Shown: positions 1,018-50,499 of the stretch, in pieces
How positions within the stretch are numbered: position 1 is the stretch's first letter
How the letters are laid out: every line of letters starts with the position of its first letter
DNA from: a phage
Strand: one strand, 5' to 3'
Length of the DNA: 64,000 nt
Sequence record: PZ445444.1
Made by a program: the position numbers and the translations under genes
Notes under the pieces: model-generated
The model's input: the letters and a program-made list of their open reading frames with translations, nothing else
Told to the model about the DNA's origin: nothing
Database searches by the model: none

Positions 1018-1782
1018 TTGAAATTTATCTACAAAGAACACTACCACAAAGGTGTTGTGTGGAGTCTATTTGACGGGTCTGGTGGTGCAGTCATTGACTG
1101 GGCAAAAGCTGGGTACCTGTGCCTGTGCTTTAATGCAGAAGGCGCTGATCACGGCAGTTATGCAGAGGTGATCACCGATCATCCCAACATTCACTATGTG
1201 GACTATTGGATTGACCCGTGGTTCCCTCAGGAAACTTTTTGCATGTATCCGGCTCCAGATTTTATTCTTGCATTTCCTCCGTGCACGCATTTAGCGGTAT
1301 CAGGTGCTGCACATTTTAAGAAAAAGCTGGCTAAGGACCCCATGATCCAAATTAATGCTGTAAAGGATGCTCGGGTTGCGGAAGAGCTGGGAGAGATTTA
1401 CGATTGCCCGTGGCATGTAGAGAATCCTGTGGGTGTTATGTCCACACTGTGGCGCAAACCTGATTACCGTTTTCACCCTTCGGATTATGGCGGGTATTTA
1501 CCGGAAGATGATGTAAACCCATGGTTTCCTGAATTTATAGCTCCACGTGATGCCTATCCAAAAATAACTTGCGGCTGGATAGGTAATGGATTTATAATCC
1601 CAGCCACAAAACCTGTCCCGCAAATAGTTGACGCGGTTAGCGGGTATTCCATGCAACACGCCAAGCTGGGTGGAAAGAGTGCAAGAACGAAGATGATTCG
1701 AAGCCTCACACCACGTGGCTGGGCAAAAGCCGTATTCCTAGCAAACGAGCCTGTAGTAAGGAGCAGAATTAATGGGAAGTAA
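1018..1782 (+). CDS. putative DNA (cytosine-5)-methyltransferase
   Basis: Motif I-like FDGSGG, motif IV-like PPCTHLAVSG, motif VI-like ENPVGV. Probable TTG start at 1018 after GGAGA; the track ORF start at 988 lies inside the terminator stem. Confidence 0.5.
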   Translation: MKFIYKEHYHKGVVWSLFDGSGGAVIDWAKAGYLCLCFNAEGADHGSYAEVITDHPNIHYVDYWIDPWFPQETFCMYPAPDFILAFPPCTHLAVSGAAHFKKKLAKDPMIQINAVKDARVAEELGEIYDCPWHVENPVGVMSTLWRKPDYRFHPSDYGGYLPEDDVNPWFPEFIAPRDAYPKITCGWIGNGFIIPATKPVPQIVDAVSGYSMQHAKLGGKSARTKMIRSLTPRGWAKAVFLANEPVVRSRINGK

Positions 1783-3850
1783 ATTTATGGCATCTGCATA
1801 CAACCGTTTCGGTGAGCCAAACCCGAAAGCAACTAAGTATAAAAGTGGGGGAAGTGTGAAACGAGACTATCGTGATGAAAAAGAAGTTGAAACTGTAGAG
1901 ACTGTTTTAGAAAATACTAAAATTGTCCCTGTCCCACAACAAAATATCGGTCTGATGGCTGCACAATATTTTGGTGTGCGATCAGCATTGTCACAAGAAG
2001 ACGGTGTGACAGTCACTGCAACATATTTCCCATATTACGACCGCTACGGAAATCTGTCCGGTTTCAAAAAGCGTGACTGGACTATTCCTAAGGAACAAAG
2101 GGGTCACTTCTCCGTTGTTGGCATCGTAAAGGCCAACTCCCAGATGTTTGGTCAAAAGCTGTGTGCATCTTCCAACAACCGTAAGCAGATTAACGTTTGT
2201 GAGGGAGAAGGTGATGTTATTGCAGCATGGCAGGCTGCATATCAGATACAAGTAAAAGGGATTCTCACCAACGCTAAAGCCCCGGCAAAGGTGAAGCAGT
2301 GGGCTAAAGAGGTCCAGGACGGGATCGACGCAGTTATCAACGGTGGTGATCTGGCAGGAAAACCCTGCCTGCCTTTTGTTGGAATTAACTGTGGATGTGC
2401 AAACGCAGTAGATACTTTTGCAAACAATGAGAAGTTTATCCGTAGCTATGGAACAGTTGTGCTGGCAATGGATAACGATGCAGCTAACGAGGTAGAGAAG
2501 CAAAAACACGTCATTAAAGGTGTTGAGGCCACGCACAATATCGCAGCATTTTTGATGGCTGATAACGTTTACCACGTAGAATACCCTGGTGAAGTAAATG
2601 ACCCTGACGGGGTAAAAGATATCCGTGACATGCTGAAGGCTAAAAAGCTGGAAGATATTGTCAACATGTTCCGGCACCCTGTTAAATATGTGCCTGATGC
2701 TGTGTCGGATTTAGAAGACTTCTCTATCGAGTCTTTGCGGAAAAAGACTTCCAACGGGGTAGATATCAGCGCAGAGTTCCCAAAACTGCAAAAAATGCTA
2801 AAAGGCTTGCACAAAGGGACACTCGTAATGCTTACAGGGCCATCAGGGGGCGGTAAAACAACTGTAGCTAAAAAACTGGAACATTGTATTGCAAGATACC
2901 TAATGGACCCGACATGCCCGAAGGCTGATGACTATGAAGAGGATGATCGTCTATGTATGATCCATCTTGAGGAGGACCCAGAGGAAGCAATTAACTCCTT
3001 GTATGCAAACCAGTTAGGGTTTGATGTTAAAGAGTTTGTTGAAGATCCTAGCCAGTTTTTAACTGATCAAGAACACGCAGAGATTCACCAATCATGGGCA
3101 AAAGCTGGAAAAATCAAAGTGTTCAAACATTTCGGATCTATTCCGGTGGACGAGTTGATTACCAAGCTTAAGCAAATGGTTTGCCTGTACCATTGCCGTT
3201 ATATTGTGCTGGATCACCTGTCCATGGTAATTTCAGGGCTTAATGTTAAGGATGAGCGAAAAGAACTGGACATGGCTATGACTCAGCTGGCTGCGTTTTG
3301 TAAGCAGTTTAACGTGTTTATCTTGGTGATCGCTCACCTCAAACGTACAGAGATTGTGCCTCCTAAGGACAAGGATGGTAACCCGTTACCTTTCTGGTAT
3401 CCTGTGCGAAAAGAGAATTTGCGAGGATCGGCGGGGCTTGAACAGTTGAGTTGGGTAGTCATAGGTGTCGAGGCCGAAGAAATGGTGGATCGTTCTCGTG
3501 GACGTGTCCGTCTGGTAGGTCTTAAAAACCGTCCAGCAAAAACTCTAGGTATTGCTGACACTTTGGTTATGGACCCGCACACAGGTAAGTTCCATGATGC
3601 CAGTAATTGGTACTGGGACAAAGAAATGCAAATGTTTACAGACGGAGAAGGTGGGGAGGTTGTTTGGAGACCTCAGGCTATGTTTGAGGATCAGGAGCAT
3701 GCAGTTGTAGAAACACCTATGGGCAAGGTTGTGGCTGATAAGGTTGTAACTCCTACTGTTAAGCCTGTTGACACGCAGGAAGACCTCCAGTACGATGATC
3801 CATCCTCTGACCCGGTCCCCGGTTTTGAGGATGATGAAACACCTTTTTAA
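1772..3850 (+). CDS. bifunctional DNA primase-helicase (T7 gp4-like)
   Basis: 692 aa; TOPRIM-like CEGEGD segment in the N-terminal half; Walker A LTGPSGGGKTT and DnaB-family features in the C-terminal half. Confidence 0.85.
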   Translation: MGSKFMASAYNRFGEPNPKATKYKSGGSVKRDYRDEKEVETVETVLENTKIVPVPQQNIGLMAAQYFGVRSALSQEDGVTVTATYFPYYDRYGNLSGFKKRDWTIPKEQRGHFSVVGIVKANSQMFGQKLCASSNNRKQINVCEGEGDVIAAWQAAYQIQVKGILTNAKAPAKVKQWAKEVQDGIDAVINGGDLAGKPCLPFVGINCGCANAVDTFANNEKFIRSYGTVVLAMDNDAANEVEKQKHVIKGVEATHNIAAFLMADNVYHVEYPGEVNDPDGVKDIRDMLKAKKLEDIVNMFRHPVKYVPDAVSDLEDFSIESLRKKTSNGVDISAEFPKLQKMLKGLHKGTLVMLTGPSGGGKTTVAKKLEHCIARYLMDPTCPKADDYEEDDRLCMIHLEEDPEEAINSLYANQLGFDVKEFVEDPSQFLTDQEHAEIHQSWAKAGKIKVFKHFGSIPVDELITKLKQMVCLYHCRYIVLDHLSMVISGLNVKDERKELDMAMTQLAAFCKQFNVFILVIAHLKRTEIVPPKDKDGNPLPFWYPVRKENLRGSAGLEQLSWVVIGVEAEEMVDRSRGRVRLVGLKNRPAKTLGIADTLVMDPHTGKFHDASNWYWDKEMQMFTDGEGGEVVWRPQAMFEDQEHAVVETPMGKVVADKVVTPTVKPVDTQEDLQYDDPSSDPVPGFEDDETPF

Positions 3851-3908: not shown

Positions 3909-4643
3909 ATGAACGAGTTCAGAGATCACTGTGTAGCTAATCACTTGTGGTCAGAAATATTGGAGTATGACGGTCAAAATCTTTTTTGGAAGATAGACAT
4001 TCTGGCAGGCAGCGGTGTAGGATATGTTAAAACTTCAGCAGGCTCCAGAGCTGACAAGGGGCAAGATGCTGATGGCAGGCCTGTGGTTAGTCTAGGAAAG
4101 CATTGCACTAAAGGTGCCCACGTTATAATCTGGGAAATGTTTAACGGTCCTGTACCGGAGGGGTATGAGGTTGACCACATCAAGGAGATAAGGGAAACAG
4201 GTGGTGTGGCTGACAACAGTATTCAAAATTTGCAACTACTCGAACCTACAGATAACAAAAAGAAAAGTTGCAAGATACCTCGTAGCAACAACAAATCTGG
4301 CAGGGTCGGGGTGCACTATTCTGAAGAAAGAGGGGCATGGGTAGCTCAAGGCACAGACTCTGTAGGTGAAAGGGTCTGGCTAGGCCAGTACAGAACTTTT
4401 GAAGAGGCAGAGTGGGCAAGAAAGTTCTTCGAAGATAATGGTTTTTCGCACAAGAGTGGAAGAGCCGTGCAGTATAATAACACCAGCGGTTGCTCAGGGG
4501 TGAATTGGGATAAAACCCATGAAAGATGGGTAGCCAGAATTTATGTAGATGGTAAAAGGAAATGCCTTGGGTATTTCAAGAACAGGGACGATGCAATAGC
4601 TGCAAGAAAGAATGCTGAGAAGACACAGGAGGAGACAGTATGA
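3909..4643 (+). CDS. free-standing HNH homing endonuclease with AP2-like repeats
   Basis: HNH core EVDHIKEIRETGGVADNSIQNLQLL; repeated RVGVHY...GAWVA and GVNWDK..RWVARI AP2-like segments; sits between primase-helicase and DNA polymerase. Confidence 0.7.
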   Translation: MNEFRDHCVANHLWSEILEYDGQNLFWKIDILAGSGVGYVKTSAGSRADKGQDADGRPVVSLGKHCTKGAHVIIWEMFNGPVPEGYEVDHIKEIRETGGVADNSIQNLQLLEPTDNKKKSCKIPRSNNKSGRVGVHYSEERGAWVAQGTDSVGERVWLGQYRTFEEAEWARKFFEDNGFSHKSGRAVQYNNTSGCSGVNWDKTHERWVARIYVDGKRKCLGYFKNRDDAIAARKNAEKTQEETV

Positions 4644-7069
4644 GTAATTGGTGCTTCGATCTGGAGGCCTCAGGGCTTTTGGAAGATCCAGATCTTTATT
4701 ATCACTGCGGTCTGTTTAAAGAGCTGAATAAGAACCGTTTTATGCTGTTCCTTCCTCTAAATGACCGCACACACTACTCCGAGGAGGATATAGAAAAGGC
4801 TAAGAACTTCATTCTGGCAAAGAAAACTCTTTATAAAGATTTTGAAGTTCGCATAGCAGATTTTTCGGAGTTGGAAGGTTGGCTTACAGGCAATTCTGAC
4901 TGGTCACCAACAGCTTTGAACTGCCATAACTGCTACAGTTATGACTTTATGCTAATGGAAAGATTATCCGGTATTCATTTTGATATGTTCCGTGATCCTA
5001 AATGCATGGGGACTATCAACGACCACCAGGTTAACCTGTTTGATACGTTGGCTATGAGCCGAATCTTGTGGCCTGATCGCCCTTTACCAAAAGGTTGTCC
5101 GGACGCTGTATTCAACCCGGTTACTAAGAAAATGCAACCTGTTGGTCCTCACGGCCTTATGGCATGGGGCTACGCCCTTGGTAACCAGAAAGTTCAAATT
5201 GATGACTGGCGCGATCTTCCGCTGTGGAAATATGTGGATCGTGTGTTCGAGGACGTTATCATCCAGGAGTTGCTCTGGAAAGAGTTGGTAGCGGAATCAA
5301 AAGGTGTATTCTACGGCAAATCTGACATGCAGAACTTTATGTATGACCCTGCCAAAGAGAAGCCTAAAGGATTCAAGAAGATTACCTGGAAGAATGCATT
5401 ACGCCGAGGCATGCTGCAGCATTTCCTGATGGAGCTGCAGGCTCGACAGGGTGTGTATTTCGACATAGATGGGGCTATTGCTTTACGTGACCGTTGCGAT
5501 GCGTGGATGAAAGAGATCGCTGATCGTGTTGAACCTCAACTTCCTTTAAAAGAGTTGTCAATGTCTCAGCGGCCCAAGTTCCCTGAAAAGCCGTTTAACC
5601 AAGACGGGACAATCTCCAATAATGGTTGGAAATGGTTAAAAGATAAGCTTGGCTATCCTGTAGACATGAGCGCTTTAGAATTCAAAGCCCCGCCTAAGCG
5701 AGCATTTACCTCCACAGGAGATGTCAGCAAGATGGGGATAAAATGGTGCGAAGAGATGGGCTGCAAAGACCCCGACAAGATGGCTGATTTCTTGAGAGGT
5801 TATATTAAGGGCACCTCCACACCACAACCTTTACCTAAAGAGCTGATGGATCAGGCAATAAGTGATCTGCAGCAGAAGCGAATGCCTGACTGCAAGATAC
5901 CTATGAAAATCAGCAATCAGGACGACATTAAGCGATACCTGATCAGTGCTGGTTGGCTTCCGACAATGTGGAGAACTAAGGATGTAACTAAGGACAGCAA
6001 GAAGAAAGCTCTACCTGATGCAGATGTTGATGCACGAGTATATGCATATATGGACGAGCTTTTAGAGTCAGAGTATTGTGACCTGATTATCAACTTCTGG
6101 AACAAAACTGATGCTAAGTTCCAGACAACCGTGCACAAGTTCCGAAGCTTTCCTAACTCCGAAAGGATTAAAAAGGAAGTATTCGGGAAAATACGTAGAA
6201 AAGCCAGGGCACTTATTACTTCTCCGCAACTGAAAGATACGTTTGGACACCTATGTCCGAATCTTGAAAAATTGAACGGAGAGATGGCTAAAGATATCGT
6301 CTTGTGGTTATCATTGCGAAACCGCAGATCGGTCCTTGATCCAATTAAGGAGGATAAGGTTGATACTGGTCTTCTTAATCACCCACGTTTGAAGATTGAC
6401 CATAAGCTTCCTGCTAAAAGCTCTGGATTAACAAACACTTCCAGACAGAAACACAGTATTTGTGCAAACATGCCTAAACCATCTCCTAAAGTGGTTATGG
6501 GTAAAGAGATGCGTAGCTTGTGGGGTGTTCCTCCTGGATACTTTGAGATCGGTATTGACGGGTCCAACTTAGAGCAGCTTATCGGGGCTTGGGGTGCCTT
6601 TGAGTTCGACAACGGCTTGTACTATGATGTTGTAAGTAACGGGGACGCACACCAAAACAATGCTGAGGCATATACAAAAGTAGCAGGCAGAGAGGTGTCT
6701 CGTAACGACGGTAAACCTATCACGTATGGGGTTATGTACGGGGCACAAAAAGATAAAGTTGCAGATATGCTGGATATCTCCCCAGAGTTGGGGCAAAGGG
6801 TGATCGATGCACTTTGGGATGCCAACCCCGGTCTTAAGGGGCGCAAAGAGGATCTGGAGAAATTCTGGGAAGCAACAGGTAAGAAGTTTATCTACTCTTT
6901 TGATGGTCATGCTATCTGGACCCGATCTAAACACTCTTTACTTAATGCATACCAACAAAATGGTGGTGCATCGCTGTGTGACTTAGTTGGGATACTCATG
7001 CACCACCAAATGGTGAAGCGTGGGTGGTACGATGAAGGTGTCCGTCGTATTATCTATTACCATAAATAA
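4640..7069 (+). CDS. DNA polymerase, family A, with 3'-5' exonuclease domain
   Basis: 809 aa; Exo I motif FDLEASG at the N-terminus; Pol A motif B-like RNDGKPITYGVMYG. Confidence 0.85.
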   Translation: MSNWCFDLEASGLLEDPDLYYHCGLFKELNKNRFMLFLPLNDRTHYSEEDIEKAKNFILAKKTLYKDFEVRIADFSELEGWLTGNSDWSPTALNCHNCYSYDFMLMERLSGIHFDMFRDPKCMGTINDHQVNLFDTLAMSRILWPDRPLPKGCPDAVFNPVTKKMQPVGPHGLMAWGYALGNQKVQIDDWRDLPLWKYVDRVFEDVIIQELLWKELVAESKGVFYGKSDMQNFMYDPAKEKPKGFKKITWKNALRRGMLQHFLMELQARQGVYFDIDGAIALRDRCDAWMKEIADRVEPQLPLKELSMSQRPKFPEKPFNQDGTISNNGWKWLKDKLGYPVDMSALEFKAPPKRAFTSTGDVSKMGIKWCEEMGCKDPDKMADFLRGYIKGTSTPQPLPKELMDQAISDLQQKRMPDCKIPMKISNQDDIKRYLISAGWLPTMWRTKDVTKDSKKKALPDADVDARVYAYMDELLESEYCDLIINFWNKTDAKFQTTVHKFRSFPNSERIKKEVFGKIRRKARALITSPQLKDTFGHLCPNLEKLNGEMAKDIVLWLSLRNRRSVLDPIKEDKVDTGLLNHPRLKIDHKLPAKSSGLTNTSRQKHSICANMPKPSPKVVMGKEMRSLWGVPPGYFEIGIDGSNLEQLIGAWGAFEFDNGLYYDVVSNGDAHQNNAEAYTKVAGREVSRNDGKPITYGVMYGAQKDKVADMLDISPELGQRVIDALWDANPGLKGRKEDLEKFWEATGKKFIYSFDGHAIWTRSKHSLLNAYQQNGGASLCDLVGILMHHQMVKRGWYDEGVRRIIYYHK

Positions 7070-16277: not shown

Positions 16278-16467
16278 GCTTAAATCTGCATGGAACATCG
16301 CTGTGGGGGACGAGATCCGTATCCCAGGTGGAAAGACCATTATGAAGATATCTCGTATCGAGTACGAAGGTGATCGTGTATTTCATATCTTTGCAGAGGA
16401 TGGTCGAGAAATTTATATACAGGCAGGCTCTCACATCTATATTCGTAAGAAAGGGGACGACAAATGA
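16264..16467 (+). CDS. hypothetical protein (67 aa)
   Basis: RBS AAGGAGG; overlaps neighbours at both ends. Confidence 0.5.
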   Translation: MQMFKLKSAWNIAVGDEIRIPGGKTIMKISRIEYEGDRVFHIFAEDGREIYIQAGSHIYIRKKGDDK

Positions 16468-16793
16468 CAGAGATCATCATTTCAACTGCAGGGTATGTGT
16501 TCCTGACAATCATTGCACTGACCATTCTGGTTGTGGTATATGGAATTGTTATTCTCCCTATTCTTGAGACAATTAGTTTGTGTCGGTGTTGGAGAAAGGC
16601 TTACGGTCCACAGCCGTGGAAGGACTGGCCCCACCTTGTGCACATAGCGTTCTCTTATGCTTATGATCACGCCAGCAGTGCATGCATAACCGGGTATCAC
16701 GCCCACAACTGGAGCTGGGAAGGGTTGAGGAAATGGAATGTTACAAAGACCATACCTCTGCGCATGTACAAACCTAAAAACAAAGACAGCTGA
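16464..16793 (+). CDS. hypothetical membrane protein (109 aa)
   Basis: N-terminal hydrophobic segment TAGYVFLTIIALTILVVVYGIVILPIL. Confidence 0.55.
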   Translation: MTEIIISTAGYVFLTIIALTILVVVYGIVILPILETISLCRCWRKAYGPQPWKDWPHLVHIAFSYAYDHASSACITGYHAHNWSWEGLRKWNVTKTIPLRMYKPKNKDS

Positions 16794-16799
16794 TACTTG

Positions 16800-17300
16800 A
16801 AAATTTCTGGCATATCAAGTGTAAGGAGGATTTCTAAAATGGATTTCCTCCTTTTGATATTTCACCGGGCTAGATATTTTAAAATTCTTAGAAAATCAGA
16901 AAATGGATCGAAAACTAAAATGGATTTTTCAGAGCAGGCACGACGAGATGAACCACTCATCCTATCGTCTGCACCATATTCCAGACCACCATTACAGATT
17001 TCCCGCACATGCTCACATCCTTCTACTAGAACTTCCCCCACTTACCCTTGACCTTTTATAGTAATAATCCAACCACTACCTTGAAGTTGTGGCGCAGCTT
17101 TCCAAGTACTCGATCTGTTTTTCGTTTCAAAGATTGAATTTTCTGAAAATTTTTCTCGATAAATTTCTCAGTACTCGATCTGTTTTTCGTTTTCTGAATC
17201 GGATTTTCTGGAAATCGTTCCGGCTCTCGACCTGAAATTTTTGGGGACGAAATCGATTTTTCGTTTTCAGAAATGGATTTTTAAAATTTCTATATGGGAA
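16800..17300. repeat. iteron-like direct-repeat region without convincing ORFs
   Basis: Repeated aaaatggat units and two copies of tactcgatctgtttttcgttt plus related cgatttttcgttttc. Confidence 0.5.
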
Positions 17301-17401
17301 TATTTTAGTGGATACTATTTTATAGGAAATTGTTACGGAGGGTAATTAGCGTGCTAATTAAATTTATTAAATGCGAGGAGTTCTCATTTAGAATTTTGAA
17401 T

Positions 17402-17480
17402 GATAATCATTCTCGTTTGCAGAATAACGGGCAGGCCCGGTGATTGTCTCCCGGCCCCTACTGCCCCGGCTTGTTATTAT
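17402..17480 (+). repeat. structured hairpin repeat element, copy 1
   Basis: gataatcattctcgtttgcag ... cccggtgattgtctccc ... ctgcccc; nested inverted repeats around conserved ttgtctccc. Confidence 0.5.
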
Positions 17481-17530
17481 AGTAACACACAGGACAAAGA
17501 AAGCAAGAAGTTTTTGCATAAATTTTTAGA

Positions 17531-17620
17531 CGATAATGATAATCGTTCTCATTTCATGCAGCGCCCATCCCCGGTGGTTGTCTCCCCCGTCACCGGTGCC
17601 TGCCGTCCTTTCGATAGGTA
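17531..17620 (+). repeat. structured hairpin repeat element, copy 2
   Basis: gataatcgttctcatttcatgcag ... ccggtggttgtctcccccgtcaccggtgcctgccgt. Confidence 0.5.
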
Positions 17621-17667
17621 TATTTTGCCACCTAGCGGGGCCGCTGTCAACACTTTTCAAAAAAAAA

Positions 17668-17682
17668 AAAAAATTTCTAACC
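17668..17682. repeat. A homopolymer tract (about 14-15 A)
   Basis: Uninterrupted run of A in a non-coding region. Confidence 0.8.
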
Positions 17683-17816
17683 TGATGCGCTGACCGCTGC
17701 AACCTGGCGGGGCCAGCCTGGCAGGGCCTAACTGACCAGGTAGGAGAGAATGAAGGCTTGCAAACCTGGTGGGCCTATGCTATAGGATAGATAACAATTG
17801 AAGAGGAGGTACAAAA

Positions 17817-17993
17817 ATGGAAGGTAATATGATCCCCCTGGAAAATGTAGCTATTAATGACGCTGAGGCTATCGCCCTGGTTGAAAAGGCTATGGCGGGA
17901 GCGTTGGAACATAAAGAAGAGTACGAAAAAATGATGGTTAACCTGGCAGGGGCGGCGGCTGGAGAATTCTACCCAAAAAATAATTTTAACTAA
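17817..17993 (+). CDS. hypothetical small protein (58 aa)
   Basis: ATG preceded by GAAGAGGAGG; below the ORF-track length cutoff. Confidence 0.45.
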   Translation: MEGNMIPLENVAINDAEAIALVEKAMAGALEHKEEYEKMMVNLAGAAAGEFYPKNNFN

Positions 17994-17996
17994 TGG

Positions 17997-18025
17997 TTGA
18001 CAGCTCGGACAGTTCTTGTTATTCT
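17997..18025 (+). promoter_or_regulatory. sigma70-like promoter
   Basis: TTGACA-N17-TATTCT. Confidence 0.45.
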
Positions 18026-18078
18026 TATCCTCGCAAGGTGAACAACACCACACCAATTAACAGAGAGGATAAAAAATC

Positions 18079-18276
18079 ATGAACGCCTACGGAATTAAAG
18101 TACGTCGCAACACTCGCCAGGTGGTCACCAATCAAGTGATTTGCCGGGTGGATGTAACCATCAACAACGGGCAAGGCCTTTATAAATTTCGTCGCGGTCA
18201 TAGCTATACCCTGCAACAGCTTAATCGTTGCGCCCTGACAAAAGGTCAGATCAACCACTGGTTTAATAAAAAATAA
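18079..18276 (+). CDS. hypothetical basic protein (65 aa)
   Basis: RBS GAGAGGA upstream of ATG. Confidence 0.5.
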   Translation: MNAYGIKVRRNTRQVVTNQVICRVDVTINNGQGLYKFRRGHSYTLQQLNRCALTKGQINHWFNKK

Positions 18277-18279
18277 GTA

Positions 18280-18308
18280 TTGACATATAGTCCGACACCA
18301 AATACACT
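18280..18308 (+). promoter_or_regulatory. sigma70-like promoter
   Basis: TTGACA-N17-TACACT. Confidence 0.5.
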
Positions 18309-26526: not shown

Positions 26527-26556
26527 AAAACAGGGCTTGCAATGGTCCTGTTTTTT
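26527..26556 (+). terminator. intrinsic terminator (imperfect stem)
   Basis: aaaacagggc ... ggtcctgtttt followed by a T-run. Confidence 0.45.
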
Positions 26557-26571
26557 GTTATACTTGTTTCA

Positions 26572-26622
26572 CGGCAGGCACCTGGTGACGGGGGGAGACA
26601 ATCACCGGGTGTGCCTGCTATA
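26572..26622 (-). repeat. structured hairpin repeat element, copy 3 (inverted relative to copies at 17.4-17.6 kb)
   Basis: Reverse complement reads ccggtgattgtctccccccgtcaccaggtgcctgccgt, near-identical to the 17531-17620 copy. Confidence 0.5.
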
Positions 26623-26640: not shown

Positions 26641-26669
26641 TTGACATCTGCCAGGTGGTGGGGTAGCAT
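26641..26669 (+). promoter_or_regulatory. sigma70-like promoter
   Basis: TTGACA-N17-TAGCAT. Confidence 0.5.
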
Positions 26670-27939: not shown

Positions 27940-30350
27940 CTTCTCCTACCATAAACGGCCCTACCTGGCAAGTGGAATAATTGACTAGCCATCAATCCCA
28001 CATACTGTACAAATATACATTGAAAATAACTATTGCATAATTTTTCATTGTGTGGTAGCAGGGCCATTTTTACCCGTTTTCTCTCCCAAAAGTGCACGTA
28101 ATGCCGCTATTGCACAAATTTTAACCTGATGCACATCTCCAATATCTTGTCAACAACTAAAAATCTTTATAAGTCATACACTTACACAGCATCGAAAGCG
28201 TGTTCTACGCGAAAAATAGAGTATAACTATAGCCGCCAGATCTCAGAATTCACGTACGCACGCCATTCTATAGCCTGCAAAGTATTTATTCCAACCACAG
28301 AATAAAGGAATAGTCAATACCTGCATAAAATAATTATTCGTGTAAACTGCATAACATAAATCAGCTCAGGTGTCAACATTTTTCGTAAACAGCCCGAAAT
28401 TATCACGATGAGTTATCATAAACAGAGAAATCTTTAGTCGTCTAATGTTTACTGTACATTACTATACTGACTGGAATCATTAGATGACTAAGAGAAAGAT
28501 AAGAAATAATTAATAATGTAATTGTTTTACCTGTAACAATAAGGCAACTATGCAAACGAATGGCATGGCGCGACGGAGTCGCGACATAATATAAAAGCAG
28601 TAACCATCACCCCCGTGATAGTTTGTCTGCAAACTATTAATCAGATCATAGTTGCCTTGTATTTAGTTAATCATGACATAACAAGCAAGGCAACTATAGA
28701 TCTTATAATAGTTGCCCTGCTTTTATATTATGTCATGCTAATTATAATCAGTGCGATTATTGTCATGTATAATTATTGTCATGCAAACGAATGGCATGGC
28801 TGATTATCGGTGTGTAAACAGTCAATCATGTAAATGGTTAGCATGTGAACAATCAGGAATGTAAACAATCCAGTGTGTAAACTAATAGGTGTGTAAAAGT
28901 GTCATGTTGTGTCAGTTAGGTCACATTATGTCAGACAAGTTTTTCTCCTCTTTGTCAAGTGCTGCATGAAAAATTTACAATCTTGTATGGTAGCATTTTT
29001 GCGGCCCTGTTTACATTCAGGAGTGTATGTATAATCCTTGGTGTGTGGGCGTTTAGACGTCTAGACGGTCAGAAGTCTGCAGGTCAATATCTAATCTATT
29101 GGCTGCTAACTATATCCCCCACAAATAATAAGAAATATAATTGTTATGTGCGTAAACAGTAACCCATGTTATCAATCCCTGTATGTATCGCCAGTGGTGC
29201 GCATAATGGGTATTATGTTAAATTGCCCGTAATGATAACTATTCTCACAATGATAGGTATTCTCATTCACTCCCACAAGATAGGTTGCAAATGTTGTGCC
29301 ATTGTGTGAACGGCCTCACCTATTAATTTGCCTCACTGCCTCGATATTTGAGAATTGTTATAAGAATGAGAATGATTCCCATTTCGTCCGCCTAGCAGCA
29401 CTCCTGTAGGACAAGCACAAAATCGTGGCATAGCTGGACCTGTTCAGATATTTCTGGCTGGCTCTTCAGGTCTGTGTGGGAAAAGCCAACCCCCTCCGGC
29501 GGCGGGGAGGGTGTCAATTAAAAAATTTACGGGGTATATGAAGCGCTCTTCAGGTAAGGCATGTACTATGGGATGAAACCCTCTTCGGGCAATGATATTT
29601 GTGGGTGTGATATTTGCTGGAAAGCCAGATATGACGGGACTCCCGGCGGGGCAGGGGTAGTACAGACAGGGAAAATATGGGGATGTAGTTGGGTGAATTG
29701 ATCGGGCAGGTAGAGTATGGAATATGTTACAAGTATGTTAAATATGGAGGGTGAATATCTGCAGGATTTGTGTGTAAAATCAAAGACTTAAGTAGTGTTG
29801 TGGTATTTTCTATAAATAATTCAAGTTTAATAGGTAATATTTGTCTCTATCCACTTTGTGTGGTAAACAAATTCAAATGAGATTGGTTTACAAGTGTATA
29901 CATAATATACAAATTAAAGATACAAGAAACCCCCCTCCCCCTTCGGCTACCATTCACCTTTTCCTCTGACTGGTACTTAAACACTTATTCAGACTCTTCA
30001 GGTTATCACCCATATACCATATGGCAGTGACTGGTGTCCTCCGGCCCCTCTTTCGTCACCCGTCCGCTTCGCCATGCTAATGCCATAGCCAAATGTTCGG
30101 TTGTTCACCCTGTTCACTCAGGTGTATCTCCATACCCCTTCAAACCGAAGAGAACAGAAAACCCGAATTACTCGGTAAAAGAAAAGAGAAGAACTTAATT
30201 TTATCAGGATAGGCAAGAATGTCAAGGCATGACTGCTCACTAAACAAGCAAACAGTCATGTGTGGGAGGTAAGTGATTGTGGTGGTAGGAAATTTAGTTG
30301 AAAGATGTGTTATAGGTGCTTCCAGCACTTTAGCCTGGCAGCTAATTGTG
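27940..30350. repeat. 2.4 kb AT-rich non-coding region between convergent gene blocks
   Basis: No ORF with an RBS; 20-bp direct repeat atgcaaacgaatggcatggc (28551-28570 and 28781-28800); ggcaactata/tatagttgcc palindromes; six tgtRaac repeats (28810-28900); four ctcttcagg repeats (29460-30650). Confidence 0.6.
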
Positions 30351-30352
30351 TG

Positions 30353-30568
30353 TCAGTCCAGCGGTTCATCCTCTACTTCACTGAAATCAATGTTCATGGT
30401 CTCTTCCCAACCATCGATCTCAGCACAAGAGTGGAGTTCTTTAGGGTTTACTCCCAAAGCCTCAGCAACAGAGTCTATATTTAACACCTCTGGCAGGTAT
30501 GATTCATCGAATTCAAGGTAAATCAGGCCACGAGTGTTGTCAACTCCACCAAATATTTCTATCTTCAT
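30353..30568 (-). CDS. hypothetical small acidic protein (71 aa)
   Basis: Last ORF of the minus-strand block; MKIEI... N-terminus like the paralog families upstream. Confidence 0.5.
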   Translation of the reverse strand: MKIEIFGGVDNTRGLIYLEFDESYLPEVLNIDSVAEALGVNPKELHSCAEIDGWEETMNIDFSEVEDEPLD

Positions 30569-30688
30569 GAAATCTCCTCTGGAAATGAGAGTGTGAACGG
30601 GTTTTATACGTCACAATGCACAGGAATTATGCACGTTTGCCTCTTCAGGCCATGCTTTAGCATGAGGAACCTGTGTGGGCTCGGTGCT

Positions 30689-30901
30689 TCATAGTCTACC
30701 ACCCCTGAACTCTTCGTGCTCAGGCATAATAGAGAACCAGATATCTACGATGTCCTCCCACGTCAGGTCATCAGCCTCAGGATCTGTCTGGGACGAAGAT
30801 GAAGAGTCCTCAGAATCTAAGTTTTCCTCTTTAACTGGCTCATCCAAGGGACATATGGTCACTCCTTCGGATGTCTCTTCAGATGCATGTGTGTTGATCA
30901 T
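30689..30901 (-). CDS. hypothetical acidic protein (70 aa)
   Basis: ORF in the co-directional array; highly acidic. Confidence 0.45.
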   Translation of the reverse strand: MINTHASEETSEGVTICPLDEPVKEENLDSEDSSSSSQTDPEADDLTWEDIVDIWFSIMPEHEEFRGGRL

Positions 30902-46548: not shown

Positions 46549-47541
46549 CTACAGGCTATTACCTGTCCTATGTTTACAACAAATCTCTCTATGCGCTGAT
46601 TCTACCATACTGAACACTTCAGGTCTGTAGTTAAAGAATTCGGTACTACCATCAAATTTTACAGGGAAGTTTATTTTATATTTACTGAAGGCTTTGTGCA
46701 CAGATTTTTCTACAGCCAGCATGTTTTCAGTTGATCCTTCCAACGTTTTCACTATGTGAAGATCGCGGATACTAGCTCCAGATCTTTGTGCACTTTTAAG
46801 TATCTGGTCTCTTCGCTTACTTTCATTATGACTGACCCCTATTTTCATAAATGTAGGCACTTCTGGATCATCAACCATAATGTAGAGTTTTCCGTTATCG
46901 TGTGATAAAAATCCTGTTTTAGCACATCTAGGGCAAGCATGTCCCTGCTTAAGACTGCTTGGTACGGTTAACCATGTGTGGCTACAATTTTTACAGCAGC
47001 ACAGGACTTTCTTATCCCACCTAATAATTTCTTCCAATATCTCAACATAAGGATTTCTACTTCTTATGGACTCAACCCACTTTTCGTGTGGTGATGTTTT
47101 ACTTTGTGAGATTCTTGACCCCTTACAAACTGGACAACCTCTTTTCAAATTTATATGGTTATCAGGTGTCTGTGTAAAGTGATTTCCACAAGTGTTGCAG
47201 ATTATTTCTACCCTGTCTTTGCAAGTCTTGTAGTATACGAGAGAGTAGTCATATTTATCTCCATGGATTTCTTTGGCCCTTTCTACAAATTTAAGACCTT
47301 TATTACACTTTGCAGCACGAGAAAGTTTTGCACAAAAAGGACAACCACGACCTTGCAAGTGTTTACAAGGTGCTTGCATAAAATCCCCATGGATTTGGCA
47401 GGTAATGCAAACCTTCGCATAGCAATCCACGTACACTGTTTTCGTGTAATCGTATTTATAACCGTGAATGATTTTCGCCTTCTCTATAAACTCTTCTGTT
47501 GATAATTTAGCCATTTCTTGTTTCCTAACTTCTCTAAACAT
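46549..47541 (-). CDS. zinc-ribbon repeat protein with C-terminal T5orf172/GIY-YIG-like domain (possible free-standing homing endonuclease)
   Basis: Three repeats of HG.KYDY...C..C...CP.C type; C-terminal KLYIMVDDPEVPTFMKIGVSHN ... GSTEFFNY resembles the T5orf172 (GIY-YIG superfamily) pattern. Confidence 0.5.
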   Translation of the reverse strand: MFREVRKQEMAKLSTEEFIEKAKIIHGYKYDYTKTVYVDCYAKVCITCQIHGDFMQAPCKHLQGRGCPFCAKLSRAAKCNKGLKFVERAKEIHGDKYDYSLVYYKTCKDRVEIICNTCGNHFTQTPDNHINLKRGCPVCKGSRISQSKTSPHEKWVESIRSRNPYVEILEEIIRWDKKVLCCCKNCSHTWLTVPSSLKQGHACPRCAKTGFLSHDNGKLYIMVDDPEVPTFMKIGVSHNESKRRDQILKSAQRSGASIRDLHIVKTLEGSTENMLAVEKSVHKAFSKYKINFPVKFDGSTEFFNYRPEVFSMVESAHREICCKHRTGNSL

Positions 47542-47578: not shown

Positions 47579-48841
47579 TCAGCAACTACAACTTCCATAG
47601 TGCTTAACTCGCTCGATAACTTCCGCTTGCTTACCTTTATTGTAAGGACGGGAGTTAGGACTGGAAAGGTATCCAGACACACGTCGAATTACACTGATCG
47701 TTCCCTCTTCATGGTTTCCACACTCTGGGCATACAAAGCCTTTAGCTGTTGCACTGAACTCACCAGAGAAACCACACTTGAGACATTTATCCACAGGTTG
47801 GTTAATACCAAAATACATAATGTGTTTATACCCGAAGTCAACAAGAGCCTCTAAAGCATCCAGGTTGTTTTTCAGGTTGGGTGTTTCTACGTATCCGATG
47901 TTGCCACCAGAGGAGATCATAGCAAAACCTTCCTCATACTCCCACTTATCAAAAGGAGAGCTATTTATCCATACTGGCTGATGGAAACTGTTGGTGAGAT
48001 ATTCATGCTCGTGCTTCAACACTTCCGGATATTCACGATCCAGACAGGTTGCAGCTTTATAGCATAGACTCTCAGAAGGAGTGCCGTACAAGCTAAATGC
48101 TAGTCTACTTTCCTTCTTGTATCGCTCACAAGCATCTCTCATGTGCTGAAGGATTCCAAGAGCTAAAGCCTTGTCACCCTCTCTGCCCAAAATCTGACAG
48201 GTTTCATACACACCGATATACCCAATACTGATGGAAGCGTACCCGTCATAGAAGAGTTTATCAATACTCTCTTCAGGATCCAGGCGAGCAAGAGCGCCTT
48301 CACACCACATGATGGGGTTCTGCCCTGCCTTTGTTCCTTTTAGACGATTAACCCTTACAAGGTGAGCCTCGTATGCAAGATCCAAGTATTCGTCAAGAAC
48401 TGCAAAGAAATCAACACCTTCAGTCTTGGCTTTTGCCGCAATCATTGGCAGGTTAAGGCTAACAACGCCTAAGTTAAATCTGCCAAGGTATTTCTCCTCG
48501 CCTGTTTCCAAGTCATTGTATTTGCTAAGAAAACTCCTGCAACCCATGCTAGTTACTTTGCCATCTGTCGAGCCTGTCACTTTTCTATTTAGTGGTACAG
48601 ATACGAAGTCAGGATAGATACGTTCTGCACAGCATTCCAGAGCTAATCGTTTCAAATCATAGTTAGGATCCCCAGGGTTCATGTTGACACCCTCTTCCAG
48701 GAAGAACAGCACTTTAGGGAACACAGGTGTGATACGTTCTTCACCAAGACCCATTTTGTGGACTTTCAGGTAGTTTTTGGTAATCATTCTACCAAAGACC
48801 GAGGTATCCAGTCCTAAACTCAATGTGATGAATGGAGTCTG
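47579..48841 (-). CDS. nrdD: anaerobic ribonucleoside-triphosphate reductase, exon 2
   Basis: Begins QTPFITLSLGLDTS (E. coli NrdD QTPFVTFGFGLGTS); C-terminal glycyl-radical region RRVSGYLSSPNSRPYNKGKQAEV and Cys cluster. Confidence 0.8.
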   Translation of the reverse strand, partial: QTPFITLSLGLDTSVFGRMITKNYLKVHKMGLGEERITPVFPKVLFFLEEGVNMNPGDPNYDLKRLALECCAERIYPDFVSVPLNRKVTGSTDGKVTSMGCRSFLSKYNDLETGEEKYLGRFNLGVVSLNLPMIAAKAKTEGVDFFAVLDEYLDLAYEAHLVRVNRLKGTKAGQNPIMWCEGALARLDPEESIDKLFYDGYASISIGYIGVYETCQILGREGDKALALGILQHMRDACERYKKESRLAFSLYGTPSESLCYKAATCLDREYPEVLKHEHEYLTNSFHQPVWINSSPFDKWEYEEGFAMISSGGNIGYVETPNLKNNLDALEALVDFGYKHIMYFGINQPVDKCLKCGFSGEFSATAKGFVCPECGNHEEGTISVIRRVSGYLSSPNSRPYNKGKQAEVIERVKHYGSCSC

Positions 48842-49638
48842 CTGTCTCCTCCCTGTGTTTCCACAGGGCCAGACTATCTCTTACTCTACTTCAATAAGAT
48901 AATAACCCTTTATTGTGAGATGCTTACCTTCGGCATTTCCTTCGATAGCCCTATGAACGTTACCTACGTTCAAATTTAAGGCTTTTGCACAGGCATAGAG
49001 TGAAGGATATTCACCCACCAAGGTTTTCCCTTTGTATGCCTGCACTTTCCTATAGCACTTACCTGGACAAAGTCCTGTTCGGAAAGCATGTCTCTTATTA
49101 TCTTCCGGCAAAACCCACTCTAGGTTAGACGGATGATCATTCAATGTATTGCCATCTTTATGATTCACTTCCCAGTTTTCAGGGTCTTCTGGGACATCCG
49201 GCAAACAATACAAGGCAACAATCCTTGAGGTTTGGATTCGAATCTTTTTACCTTTGTGGTTGAAAGAGTACATATAACGGCGTTTAACATGCTTGTTACC
49301 TTTTCCATAACCTCCCCACAATATTGGGTGTAGCATTCCACGTTTTCCGTATACGTTTCCAACCTCATCAATCACATAGTTTGATTCTTCACCATTAAGA
49401 ATGATCTTTTTCATAGAGCCTCTCCATTTCGAAGTTAGTATTTCAACTAACCCCTACACTACTTGGTTCAGAAATGTTTGTCAAGCATCTCTGCCTTTCG
49501 TTAGTCGTTACAACCGTTCCAACTCCTGTAAGAACTAGTCACGGGATTGGCATAGCTTTCGCCTTAGCGTTCCCCGTTAGCCGGATTTACCGACCCCTCT
49601 TATGAGGTTAGGAGAGTTTTACAACGGCCAGTTTGTTA
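48842..49638 (-). mobile_element. group I self-splicing intron interrupting nrdD
   Basis: Exon 1 frame stops right after ...NTLTSVNG; intron starts after exon-terminal T and ends in G before QTPF. Core-like elements aacggggaac (P), caatcccgtg (Q), gtaacgactaacg (R), gagatagtctgg (S); P9-like cctgtg-gaaa-cacagg; HNH ORF between R and S. Confidence 0.7.
48881..49414 (-). CDS. intron-encoded HNH homing endonuclease
   Basis: 177 aa; HNH core VNHKDGNTLNDHPSNLEWV; RBS GGAGAGG; lies wholly inside the nrdD intron. Confidence 0.8.
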   Translation of the reverse strand: MKKIILNGEESNYVIDEVGNVYGKRGMLHPILWGGYGKGNKHVKRRYMYSFNHKGKKIRIQTSRIVALYCLPDVPEDPENWEVNHKDGNTLNDHPSNLEWVLPEDNKRHAFRTGLCPGKCYRKVQAYKGKTLVGEYPSLYACAKALNLNVGNVHRAIEGNAEGKHLTIKGYYLIEVE

Positions 49639-50499
49639 ACCGTTGACAGAAGTTAACGTATTGATTTGATAGAGCAAAGTCTGCATGCTGTCAAATACGT
49701 CTTTATCTGTCATTTGCATTGCAACAGTCTCAGCATCTGGCAACCAATGTTCCTGGCAAAATTTAAGGTTCTTCTCATAGGTCGCTTCAGCATACTGTGC
49801 CAGATAATGATCAATATGGCTCATAGTCTGACCCCCATATTGAGCACTAGCTACTGCACTAGAGATTTGGCTAAGGATTGTTGTTGCAACCCCTATTGAC
49901 TTAGGCTTACTGACATGGGCGTTACCAATGTTGAATCCGTTTTCCAACATATCTGGATAATTTACCAAACAACAGTTTGTTAACGGACTGATCAAGTAGT
50001 CAAGATCATGCACATGGATGAAGCCTCTATTGTGCTCTTCTGAGACACGGTCTGGCAGGATCTGTGTTGATGCAAGGTGTTTGCTAAGAATGCCTGCAAG
50101 CAGGTCACGATGAGTGTGTACATGATTGGTAGGCTTATTTGCGTTTTCTTTTGTAAATTCATCACAAGTGCGATCCAAGAAGCCACTAATATCTGCAAGC
50201 AGTTTTCCACCTGCCTCTCTGTTATTATCTCTTGTCTGCCTATACTGGATGTATTCTCTGGCTGCACATTTTAAACCCATATCCATAAGAGCGTCTTCAA
50301 CAAGGATATGGATATTTTTTACAGAGATCGTGCACTGGTCGGTTGGTAGATTGTTAGCAACAACTTCATTAACCGCGCAGGCGATCCGGTAAGCTTCTTC
50401 TTCAGTATGTCCAGACTCAAGTAAGGCGGACTCTGCCGCCTTGATCACCTTAATTCCGTTATAGACCTCTTCTCTACCGTCCCGTTTTACAACTTTCAC
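49639..50499 (-). CDS. nrdD: anaerobic ribonucleoside-triphosphate reductase, exon 1
   Basis: N-terminal ATP-cone (VVKRDGREE...); collinear with the E. coli NrdD N-terminal 300 aa up to ...NTLTSVNG. Confidence 0.8.

Follow-up and report, generated by a model that had tools for sequence, protein, structure and literature searches.

The region described here is a 1,023-nucleotide (nt) gap at positions 16794-17816 of a 64,000-nt stretch of phage DNA (sequence record PZ445444.1; the whole stretch is called the window below), where direct repeats lie between two transcription units of the plus strand. Judged by its closest matches, the window comes from an rV5-like phage (Vequintavirus). A search with positions 16400-18300 returns 121 phage records, 112 of which match over at least 80% of that length, and the best of them are rV5-like Vequintavirus phages at 97-98%, such as Escherichia phage RudolfGeigy (BASEL Bas52), in which the gap has 99% identity to that of the window. 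An earlier note, made from the letters of the window, had found no convincing open reading frame (ORF) in the gap and had proposed its iteron-like repeats as a replication origin, a packaging site or an array of protein-binding sites. The repeats at 16856-17296 now appear to be the AT-rich, structure-forming half of an approximately 1-kilobase (kb), ORF-free, cis-acting module (16823-17790), which is conserved in the Vequintavirinae and shares its layout with Phapecoctavirus. The earlier reading passed over the features at 17370-17650, which we regard as the most informative. The features of the gap are as follows.

16823-16866, plus strand: putative intrinsic terminator of the upstream operon, with stem AAGGAGGA/TCCTCCTT, a 15-nt loop and a T-rich tail
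16856-16930: conserved AT-rich block 1, with two copies of GATATTT (16856, 16873) and two of AAAATGGAT (16900, 16917)
16931-17104: variable spacer, with 36% invariant columns and 1- and 2-nt indels
17105-17169: repeat unit 1, with core AGTACTCGATCTG, then TTTTTCGTTTC, a TTTTC-T-GAAAA dyad and GAAAATTTTTCTCGATAAATT
17170-17221: repeat unit 2, with the same 23-nt head as unit 1 and a GATTT/AAATC dyad
17222-17296: repeat unit 3, diverged, with core CTCTCGACC, dyad ACGAAA/TTTCGT, GAAATGGATTTTT and TTTCTATA
17272-17371: least stable duplex of the gap by nearest-neighbour energy, a candidate unwinding element
17373-17391: Fur box 0, degenerate, the third box of the gap
17399-17417: Fur box 1, AATGATAATCATTCTCGTT, which matches E. 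coli Fur sites
17429-17466, minus strand: GC-rich hairpin, body A, -21.6 kcal/mol, following P(-)1
17506-17479, minus strand: P(-)1, predicted leftward sigma-70 promoter without an ORF, TTGCTT-16-TGtTACTAT (extended -10), read from the sequence
17532-17553: Fur box 2, GATAATGATAATCGTTCTCATT, a consensus match
17558-17603, minus strand: second GC-rich hairpin (unit 2 body), -21.7 kcal/mol, following P(-)2
17650-17622, minus strand: P(-)2, predicted leftward early promoter without an ORF, TTGACA-17-TGgCAAAAT, from a promoter scan
17758-17786, plus strand: predicted rightward promoter for the next gene block (first gene at 17817), TTGCAA-17-TATAGG, read from the sequence

The repeats are real. 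They are AT-rich, do not code for protein, occur nowhere else in the 64 kb and have been kept by purifying selection. The aaaatggat units of the earlier note (AAAATGGAT) were found at 16836, 16900 and 16917, with a variant gaaatggat (GAAATGGAT) at 17270, and its 20-mer tactcgatctgtttttcgtt stands at 17107-17126 and 17172-17191, as it had reported. The exact repeat is 23 nt long (AGTACTCGATCTGTTTTTCGTTT, at 17105-17127 and 17170-17192). When the gap is shuffled 200 times by dinucleotides, the longest such repeat measures 9.7 nt on average and 13 nt at most. A repeat search extends this pair to 57 nt at 79% identity and adds a third, more diverged copy at 17235-17281. Together these make up three tandem units of about 52-75 nt each, covering 17105-17296. 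Unit 3 is 74% identical to unit 2, contains a hairpin that folds at -15.9 kcal/mol, and ends in TTTCTATA, an ending common to unit 3 of Seunavirus. The pattern RAAATGGWTTTY occurs three times in the 64 kb, every time inside the gap, against 0.19 expected. Furthermore, the unit core GTWCTCGATCNNNTTTTCR has exact matches in the window only at 17106 and 17171, and a general promoter motif was therefore rejected for it. Tandem Repeats Finder reports no array for the units because their lengths differ; they are dispersed-tandem units and not closely packed iterons. The period of about 65 nt led to consideration of a mini-array resembling clustered regularly interspaced short palindromic repeats, which was rejected, as the whole unit repeats and no unique spacers alternate with it. 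At the end of unit 1, the sequence TCGATAAATT is found exactly at 17156-17165; it is conserved among rV5-like phages and not clearly in other genera. We take it to be identical to a published high-affinity H-NS nucleation motif, which serves as a lead only, and an H-NS nucleation site was not adopted, given that TCGATAAATT lacks conservation between the genera.

Both the annotation and the relatives bear out that the gap lacks a convincing ORF. GenBank records annotate differing small ORFs across the gap, and relatives differ by indels of 1 and 2 nt in the spacer at 16931-17105. In PVP-SE1 (gp202) and GAP31, the annotated ORFs that cover the homologous repeats are a 1-nt indel apart and encode repeat-derived peptides. 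A protein-coding gene or pseudogene was rejected on these grounds, as there is no in-frame conserved ORF, the annotation is inconsistent and the indels break the frame. Conservation was measured in an alignment of the window with ten rV5-like phages (n = 11), in which invariant columns make up 80% of the three units and 71% of the GATATTT/AAATGGAT block. By comparison, they account for 52% of the third codon positions in the neighbouring gene and for 36% of the spacer. The units are thus among the best conserved nucleotides of the region, and the prospect raised by the earlier note, that the repeats might not be conserved in related genomes, clearly failed. The spacer itself is neither coding nor constrained, because of its low share of invariant columns and its indels. 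Phage 241Ecol014PP (L013) keeps the block from the equivalent of 16873 onward though its upstream gene has been replaced. The membrane-protein gene that otherwise stands before the gap has given way there to an unrelated ORF (positions 1-700 of that locus).

Outside Vequintavirus, BLAST at the DNA level detects only 17354-17507, and the architecture in other genera was read from the flanks of those matches. The left-to-right order is kept in PVP-SE1, GAP31 and 4MG (Seunavirus), KpS11 and Mydo (Mydovirus), CB7 and F4M1E (Certrevirus) and Erwinia phage Hena1: two to four copies of GATATTT, two to three copies of GAAATGGTTTTC, a variable spacer, three tandem units of 65-76 base pairs (bp), and then the Fur-box and promoter elements. 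The GATATTT and GAAATGGTTTTC blocks of Seunavirus, Mydovirus and Hena1 are homologous to block 1. Each unit of these phages has a core that is palindromic and contains GATC (GGTWCTCGATCG), a dyad that varies in sequence (CGATTT/AAATCG, GTTTTC/GAAAAC or CGTTTT/AAAACG), GTATTTTTTCT and GAAAAAATTTTTC. CB7 and F4M1E hold additional copies of the core, which is repeated three to about seven times across phages, and the units of Hena1 are a diverged form without an exact core match. In Phapecoctavirus (anhysbys, ESCO13), other AT-rich direct repeats stand at the equivalent place and the layout is kept. On these comparative grounds, a selected, non-coding, cis-acting module conserved across the subfamily can be regarded as firmly established. 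The earlier proposal is supported in part.

A scan of IMG/VR with the unit pattern gave 43 loci. Fur-like boxes lie 99-298 nt downstream in the same orientation in 12 of them, most of which are on contigs of about 120-153 kb, and the other 31 have none. We take the 12 as relatives and the 31 as chance matches that serve as an internal control. The plasmid-database search returned a single match, CP057073.1, a 137.6-kb E. coli "non-mobilizable plasmid" with 98.5% identity to 16856-17400. This record is rV5-like in length and probably represents an entire genome of an rV5-like phage that was filed as a plasmid, and a relative of plasmid origins was accordingly rejected. Among the 121 matches are also 16 GenBank records (MG0656xx) labelled as Campylobacter jejuni phages. 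In the matches listed, such "Campylobacter phage" records are 94-98% identical to this E. coli rV5-like sequence, and their host labels look doubtful. One further element was observed in the other genera: a stretch of about 90 nt, CTACCGGCGATCCACCTTCC...GTTAGCCCCGCCTTTTCGCCGTGGGGTGGCG, is highly conserved in Seunavirus, Mydovirus, Certrevirus and Phapecoctavirus (e.g., positions 1640-1710 of the PVP-SE1 locus), where it is placed between the CTTTACAAATCTTTACAAA direct repeat and the second minus-strand promoter. The rV5-like phages lack this element, for which Rfam gave no match, and have the second Fur box and hairpin cassette in its place.

To the right of the repeats, the two leftward promoters are directed against their neighbours and keep a conserved geometry. 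P(-)2 matches the consensus at 10 of 12 positions, carries the TG extension, is preceded by a T15 UP-like tract (17659-17673), and is the only promoter of the GTTGAC class in the 64 kb that points against its gene block. The tract, A15 on the plus strand, ranges from 6 to 15 in length between close relatives. An early promoter of the same class as P(-)2 has been described for CB7 (PMC7344957). Every other genus examined has a minus-strand -35, a spacer of 16-17 bp and a -10 at the equivalent positions (PVP-SE1, GAP31, anhysbys, CB7, KpS11 and others). This geometry persists across spacers of unconserved sequence, a sign that selection acts on the promoters themselves, and both are predicted to fire. 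Neither has an obvious gene to serve: no minus-strand ORF of at least 30 amino acids lies between 17062 and 17388. The region of the rightward promoter at 17758-17786 is variable, and deletions in relatives recreate its TTGCAA...TATAGG arrangement.

Each leftward promoter is followed by a GC-rich hairpin. The core of body A, CGGTGnTTGTCTC, is conserved across genera, and the second hairpin is 92% identical to a third copy at 26571-26609, which lies in the opposite orientation right behind a plus-strand promoter (TTGCAA-16-TATACT, 26538-26565), folds at -28.1 kcal/mol (z-score -3.7) and is upstream of another promoter at 26641. Most early promoters of the window have a short GC hairpin behind them, and such hairpins are probably a general 5'-leader feature of early transcripts. 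Because the third copy follows its promoter in the G-rich orientation and other early promoters also precede GC hairpins, the hairpins of the gap are read as the 5' stem-loops of leftward early transcripts.

The same hairpins could instead belong to a functional non-coding RNA, either a leftward RNA that contains the repeats (400-800 nt) or small rightward RNAs under Fur control. In the latter version, the C/U-rich loop UUGUCUCCC would act as an anti-Shine-Dalgarno seed, in a phage analogue of RyhB or PrrF1/PrrF2. Such an RNA would account for the two cassettes of Fur box and hairpin about 135 nt apart, for the conservation of the loop sequence across genera, and for the minus strand of 17340-17620, which folds better than shuffles (z-score -3.4). 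The gap resembles the tandem Fur-regulated small RNAs PrrF1/PrrF2, and RyhB, in its two tandem cassettes, each with a Fur box beside a short, structured, GC-rich element. The phage cassettes differ in that they lack an Rfam match, terminators and a supported rightward -10, and the better supported RNA strand is the opposite one. A known RNA family was rejected, as Rfam at permissive thresholds had no credible match either in the window (best E = 0.38) or in the five related loci searched. RNAalifold gives body A no conserved fold (-0.7 and -1.6 kcal/mol for the two strands), and the hairpins are not followed by a Rho-independent terminator (a GC hairpin with a U-run). An RNA of the RyhB/PrrF kind was set aside, as there is no Rfam match, consensus structure or terminator. 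The repeat region at 17096-17335 folds no better than shuffles on the two strands (z-scores -0.08 and -0.14), by which a structured RNA in the repeats was rejected, and the third hairpin copy is simply the 5' leader of a messenger RNA. A functional RNA is accordingly an unlikely explanation of the locus.

The Fur boxes match confirmed E. coli Fur sites. Positions 17401-17419 (TGATAATCATTCTCGTTTG) are identical at 19 of 19 nt to the Fur site of the mntH promoter in 3,923 complete E. coli genomes, and this sequence also shares 16 of 16 nt with the Fur site of the fhuA promoter. A catalogue of Fur clusters lists the two host sites at the E. coli coordinates of these matches and confirms the one at fhuA by gel shift (PMC2189734). 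Positions 17532-17550 of box 2 (GATAATGATAATCGTTCTC) agree with the Fur consensus GATAATGATAATCATTATC at 17 of 19 positions, and box 2 is invariant in rV5-like phages except at one position. With up to three mismatches allowed, the consensus has three matches in the window compared with 0.02 expected. Other genera carry one to four boxes at the equivalent position, typically 29 bp apart, with the box nearest the hairpin closest to AATGATAATCATTCTCATT. The phage boxes thus resemble the mntH and fhuA operators and the catalogued E. coli Fur clusters (PMC2189734) in these identities, in the consensus AATGAtAATnATTCTCATT and in their clustering. Unlike those operators, they stand in the genome of a virulent phage, form arrays at 29-bp spacing, and lie at about +55 to +80 relative to the ORF-less leftward promoters, not clearly overlapping the promoter of an iron-uptake gene. 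Fur would be expected to bind them in vivo. Three further boxes are found at 29231, 29249 and 29365, within the large non-coding region of the window.

Boxes of this number raise the possibility of a Fur sponge, in which those on hundreds of genome copies would titrate host Fur, much as cloned boxes do in a FURTA assay, and derepress iron uptake for the iron enzymes of the phage, the repeats on the left having a separate, unrelated cis function. At least five to six good boxes lie in the window (17373, 17399, 17535, 29231, 29249, 29365) against 0.18 expected, arrays in Phapecoctavirus and Certrevirus reach four boxes, and the phage encodes NrdAB and NrdD. Titration would leave unexplained the repeats, the fixed position and orientation of the boxes between hairpin and units, and their 29-bp spacing, and PVP-SE1 and Hena1 have a single box within the stretch examined. 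A sponge is therefore distinctly unlikely. NrdA, NrdB and a split NrdD are encoded in the minus-strand block of the window. The two ORFs of NrdD lie at 49636-50499 and 47579-48823 on the minus strand, with another ORF (48881-49414) between them and a T5orf172-domain protein (46549-47541) directly downstream on the same strand. An HNH endonuclease gene (3909-4643) similarly sits between the helicase and polymerase genes described below. The NrdD split, the T5orf172 protein and the HNH gene are probably homing-endonuclease or intron insertions.

At the left edge of the module, the inverted repeat AAGGAGGA (16823-16830) / TCCTCCTT (16846-16853) is present as the earlier note described, with one aaaatggat-type copy (AAATGGAT / AAATGGATTT) inside the hairpin loop. 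The hairpin at 16823-16853 folds at -15.8 kcal/mol (z-score -2.7) on the plus strand and at -11.6 kcal/mol (z-score -1.8) on the minus strand. Its stem is kept through G.U changes in the relatives L001 and L009 and through compensatory changes in L012 (AGGAGAA/TTCTCC) and in phage 241Ecol014PP (AGGGAAAA/TTTTCCCT). In view of its fold, T-rich tail and compensatory changes, it is best read as the intrinsic terminator of the upstream operon, outside any iteron array.

This terminator brings in the main rival account of the module, an iron-responsive transcription boundary or switch that would insulate the upstream replication-gene operon from the small early genes downstream. The hairpin and the three units would stop rightward read-through, while the ORF-less leftward promoters would add convergent transcription, with collision or antisense effects. 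Depending on iron, Fur would set the balance of leftward and rightward transcription: it would block polymerases that move leftward, or else repress a weak rightward promoter that overlaps box 1 (TTGAAT-18-CAGAAT, 17395-17425). The module lies exactly between two plus-strand transcription units, its terminator has been retained through compensatory changes, and the overlap of box 1 with hexamers resembling a -35 and a -10 has its counterpart in the mntH promoter. The dyads vary in sequence across genera yet always precede GTATTTTTTCT, a plus-strand signature of a hairpin plus a U-tract, and a promoter and terminator scan flags unit 3 as terminator-like. However, stems of 5-7 bp made up entirely of AU pairs are poor terminators, 17096-17335 folds no better than shuffles, as noted above, and the near-perfect conservation of primary sequence, including the palindromic core with GATC, exceeds what a terminator needs. 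In addition, the -10 of the proposed rightward promoter is not conserved across genera, varying at its critical second position (CAGAAT, CGGAAT, CTGAAT, GAGAAT), and the promoter scan does not report this promoter. We rate a boundary or switch slightly below the origin reading that follows.

Our tentative preference, held with well under even confidence, is that the module is a replication origin that Fur gates and transcription activates, in the manner of the T7 primary origin or of T4 oriF/oriG. In the T7 primary origin, the tandem promoters phi1.1A and phi1.1B are followed by a 61-bp AT-rich region, and T4 oriF and oriG consist of a promoter and a downstream unwinding element. The gap likewise has two tandem ORF-less promoters directed into AT-rich DNA of low stability, with no gene there for them to serve. 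The AT content of the units is 0.68 and that of block 1 is 0.72, compared with a window mean of 0.571 (standard deviation 0.039), and only one 100-bp window of the 64 kb is less stable than 17272-17371. The phage also encodes a T7-type replisome, the genes of which stand as follows within the plus-strand genes that span position 1 to about 28.3 kb of the window.

1772-3850, plus strand: DnaB-like primase-helicase gene
4640-7069, plus strand: family A DNA polymerase (PolA) gene

According to this proposal, host sigma-70 RNA polymerase would fire P(-)2 and P(-)1 right after infection, with genes behind neither. Each leftward transcript would start with a stable G-rich hairpin and cross a Fur operator, after which transcription would enter the least stable DNA and the three tandem units. 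There it would open the AT-rich repeats or leave an RNA-DNA hybrid, and the T7-like replisome, with its DnaB-like primase-helicase and family A polymerase, would then start DNA synthesis. Assembly or structural roles would fall to the dyads of the units and to their palindromic cores with GATC. The units would thus bind protein or unwind, with replication starting at this point. Fe-Fur on the operators would gate the amount of leftward transcription that reaches the repeats and so tie initiation to the iron status of the host. Such coupling plausibly fits a phage that encodes the iron-dependent NrdAB and NrdD. Unlike the T7 and T4 origins, the phage module would use host sigma-70 early promoters and contains a conserved array of three units of about 70 bp, with Fur operators, between and beyond the promoters.

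Several observations weigh against an origin at this place. The gap contains no DnaA box, and GC skew drops locally at 17 kb without a change of sign. The A-tracts lack helical phasing, with the region ranking 294 of 636 windows for periodicity, and intrinsic curvature from phased A-tracts was rejected for want of a periodicity signal. The primase-helicase gene is 13 kb from the gap, and the replisome genes as a group (primase-helicase and family A polymerase) are 10-15 kb upstream. Pfam and PHROGs place the genes that flank the gap in families of unknown function only, by which a neighbouring DNA-binding protein was rejected, and no initiator (Rep/O-like) or DNA-binding domain is recognisable in the genes near the gap. 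On the plus strand, each unit resembles a weak AU hairpin followed by a U-tract, as would fit a transcription boundary. We know of no origin that uses Fur. Searches of the literature for origins, small RNAs or transcriptomes of these phages gave nothing relevant, and no description of this region, its repeats or Fur boxes in these phages was found in the literature searched. The rV5 genome paper states that the origin could not be located from skew, and its map only shows a "non-coding" box (PMC3606486).

The region at 28.3-30.7 kb is at least as good an origin or regulatory candidate, which also counts against the gap. It is a 2.4-kb ORF-poor stretch that separates the plus-strand block from the minus-strand genes (about 31 to 64 kb). 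At 28300-30700 the two blocks converge, three Fur-like boxes are present, and short direct repeats occur (TGTGTAAAC-like, six copies; CAAACGAATGGCATGG, two; ATAGTTGCC, three). The region holds two of the three least stable windows of the 64 kb, the first and the third. GC skew changes sign there, near 30 kb, the only such switch in the window. As this switch coincides with the converging gene blocks, skew is uninformative on the origin.

The iteron origins, such as lambda ori, P1 oriR, P4 ori/crr and those of iteron plasmids, offer a second comparison. Like these, the gap has direct repeats with internal dyads beside AT-rich DNA that should be easily unwound. The units contain GATC, as do P1 oriR and oriC, and by our own count GATCTGTTTTTCG agrees with the oriC 13-mer GATCTnTTnTTTT at 9 of 11 defined positions, a lead only. 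Unlike iteron origins, the gap has three units with a period of 52-76 bp instead of about 20 bp, and neither a recognisable initiator gene adjacent to it nor a DnaA box. The close 17-22-bp spacing of iterons is absent, which again tells against an origin. The same GATC elements might be taken for a pac recognition site as in phage P1, since there is a GATC in each unit core and the cores are repeated three to about seven times. Nothing found here supports the packaging site of the earlier note. There is no terminase among the annotated ORFs of the window, and the neighbours are replication, nucleotide-metabolism and small unknown-function genes. The starts of GenBank records are scattered, and only two fall inside the gap, at differing points (about 17554 and about 17744). 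Packaging is accordingly a very improbable function of the module.

The module is a concrete, clonable candidate for an origin or for early regulation, being about 1 kb in length, unique in the 64 kb and kept from phages of Escherichia to those of Erwinia and Pectobacterium. The rV5-like phages are broad-host-range phages of E. coli and Salmonella and are held in typing and therapy collections. The matches to Fur sites imply that infection may be coupled to host iron physiology and make the long-discussed link between phages and iron testable; such coupling could affect the performance of these phages in the iron-limited gut or in host tissue. It is conceivable, though doubtful on present evidence, that a whole subfamily of virulent phages of enterobacteria, the Vequintavirinae, together with Phapecoctavirus, wires host Fur into an ORF-free module, so that iron status would time the start of replication or an early transcription switch. 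If true, lytic phages would have in this module their first known Fur-gated origin or switch.

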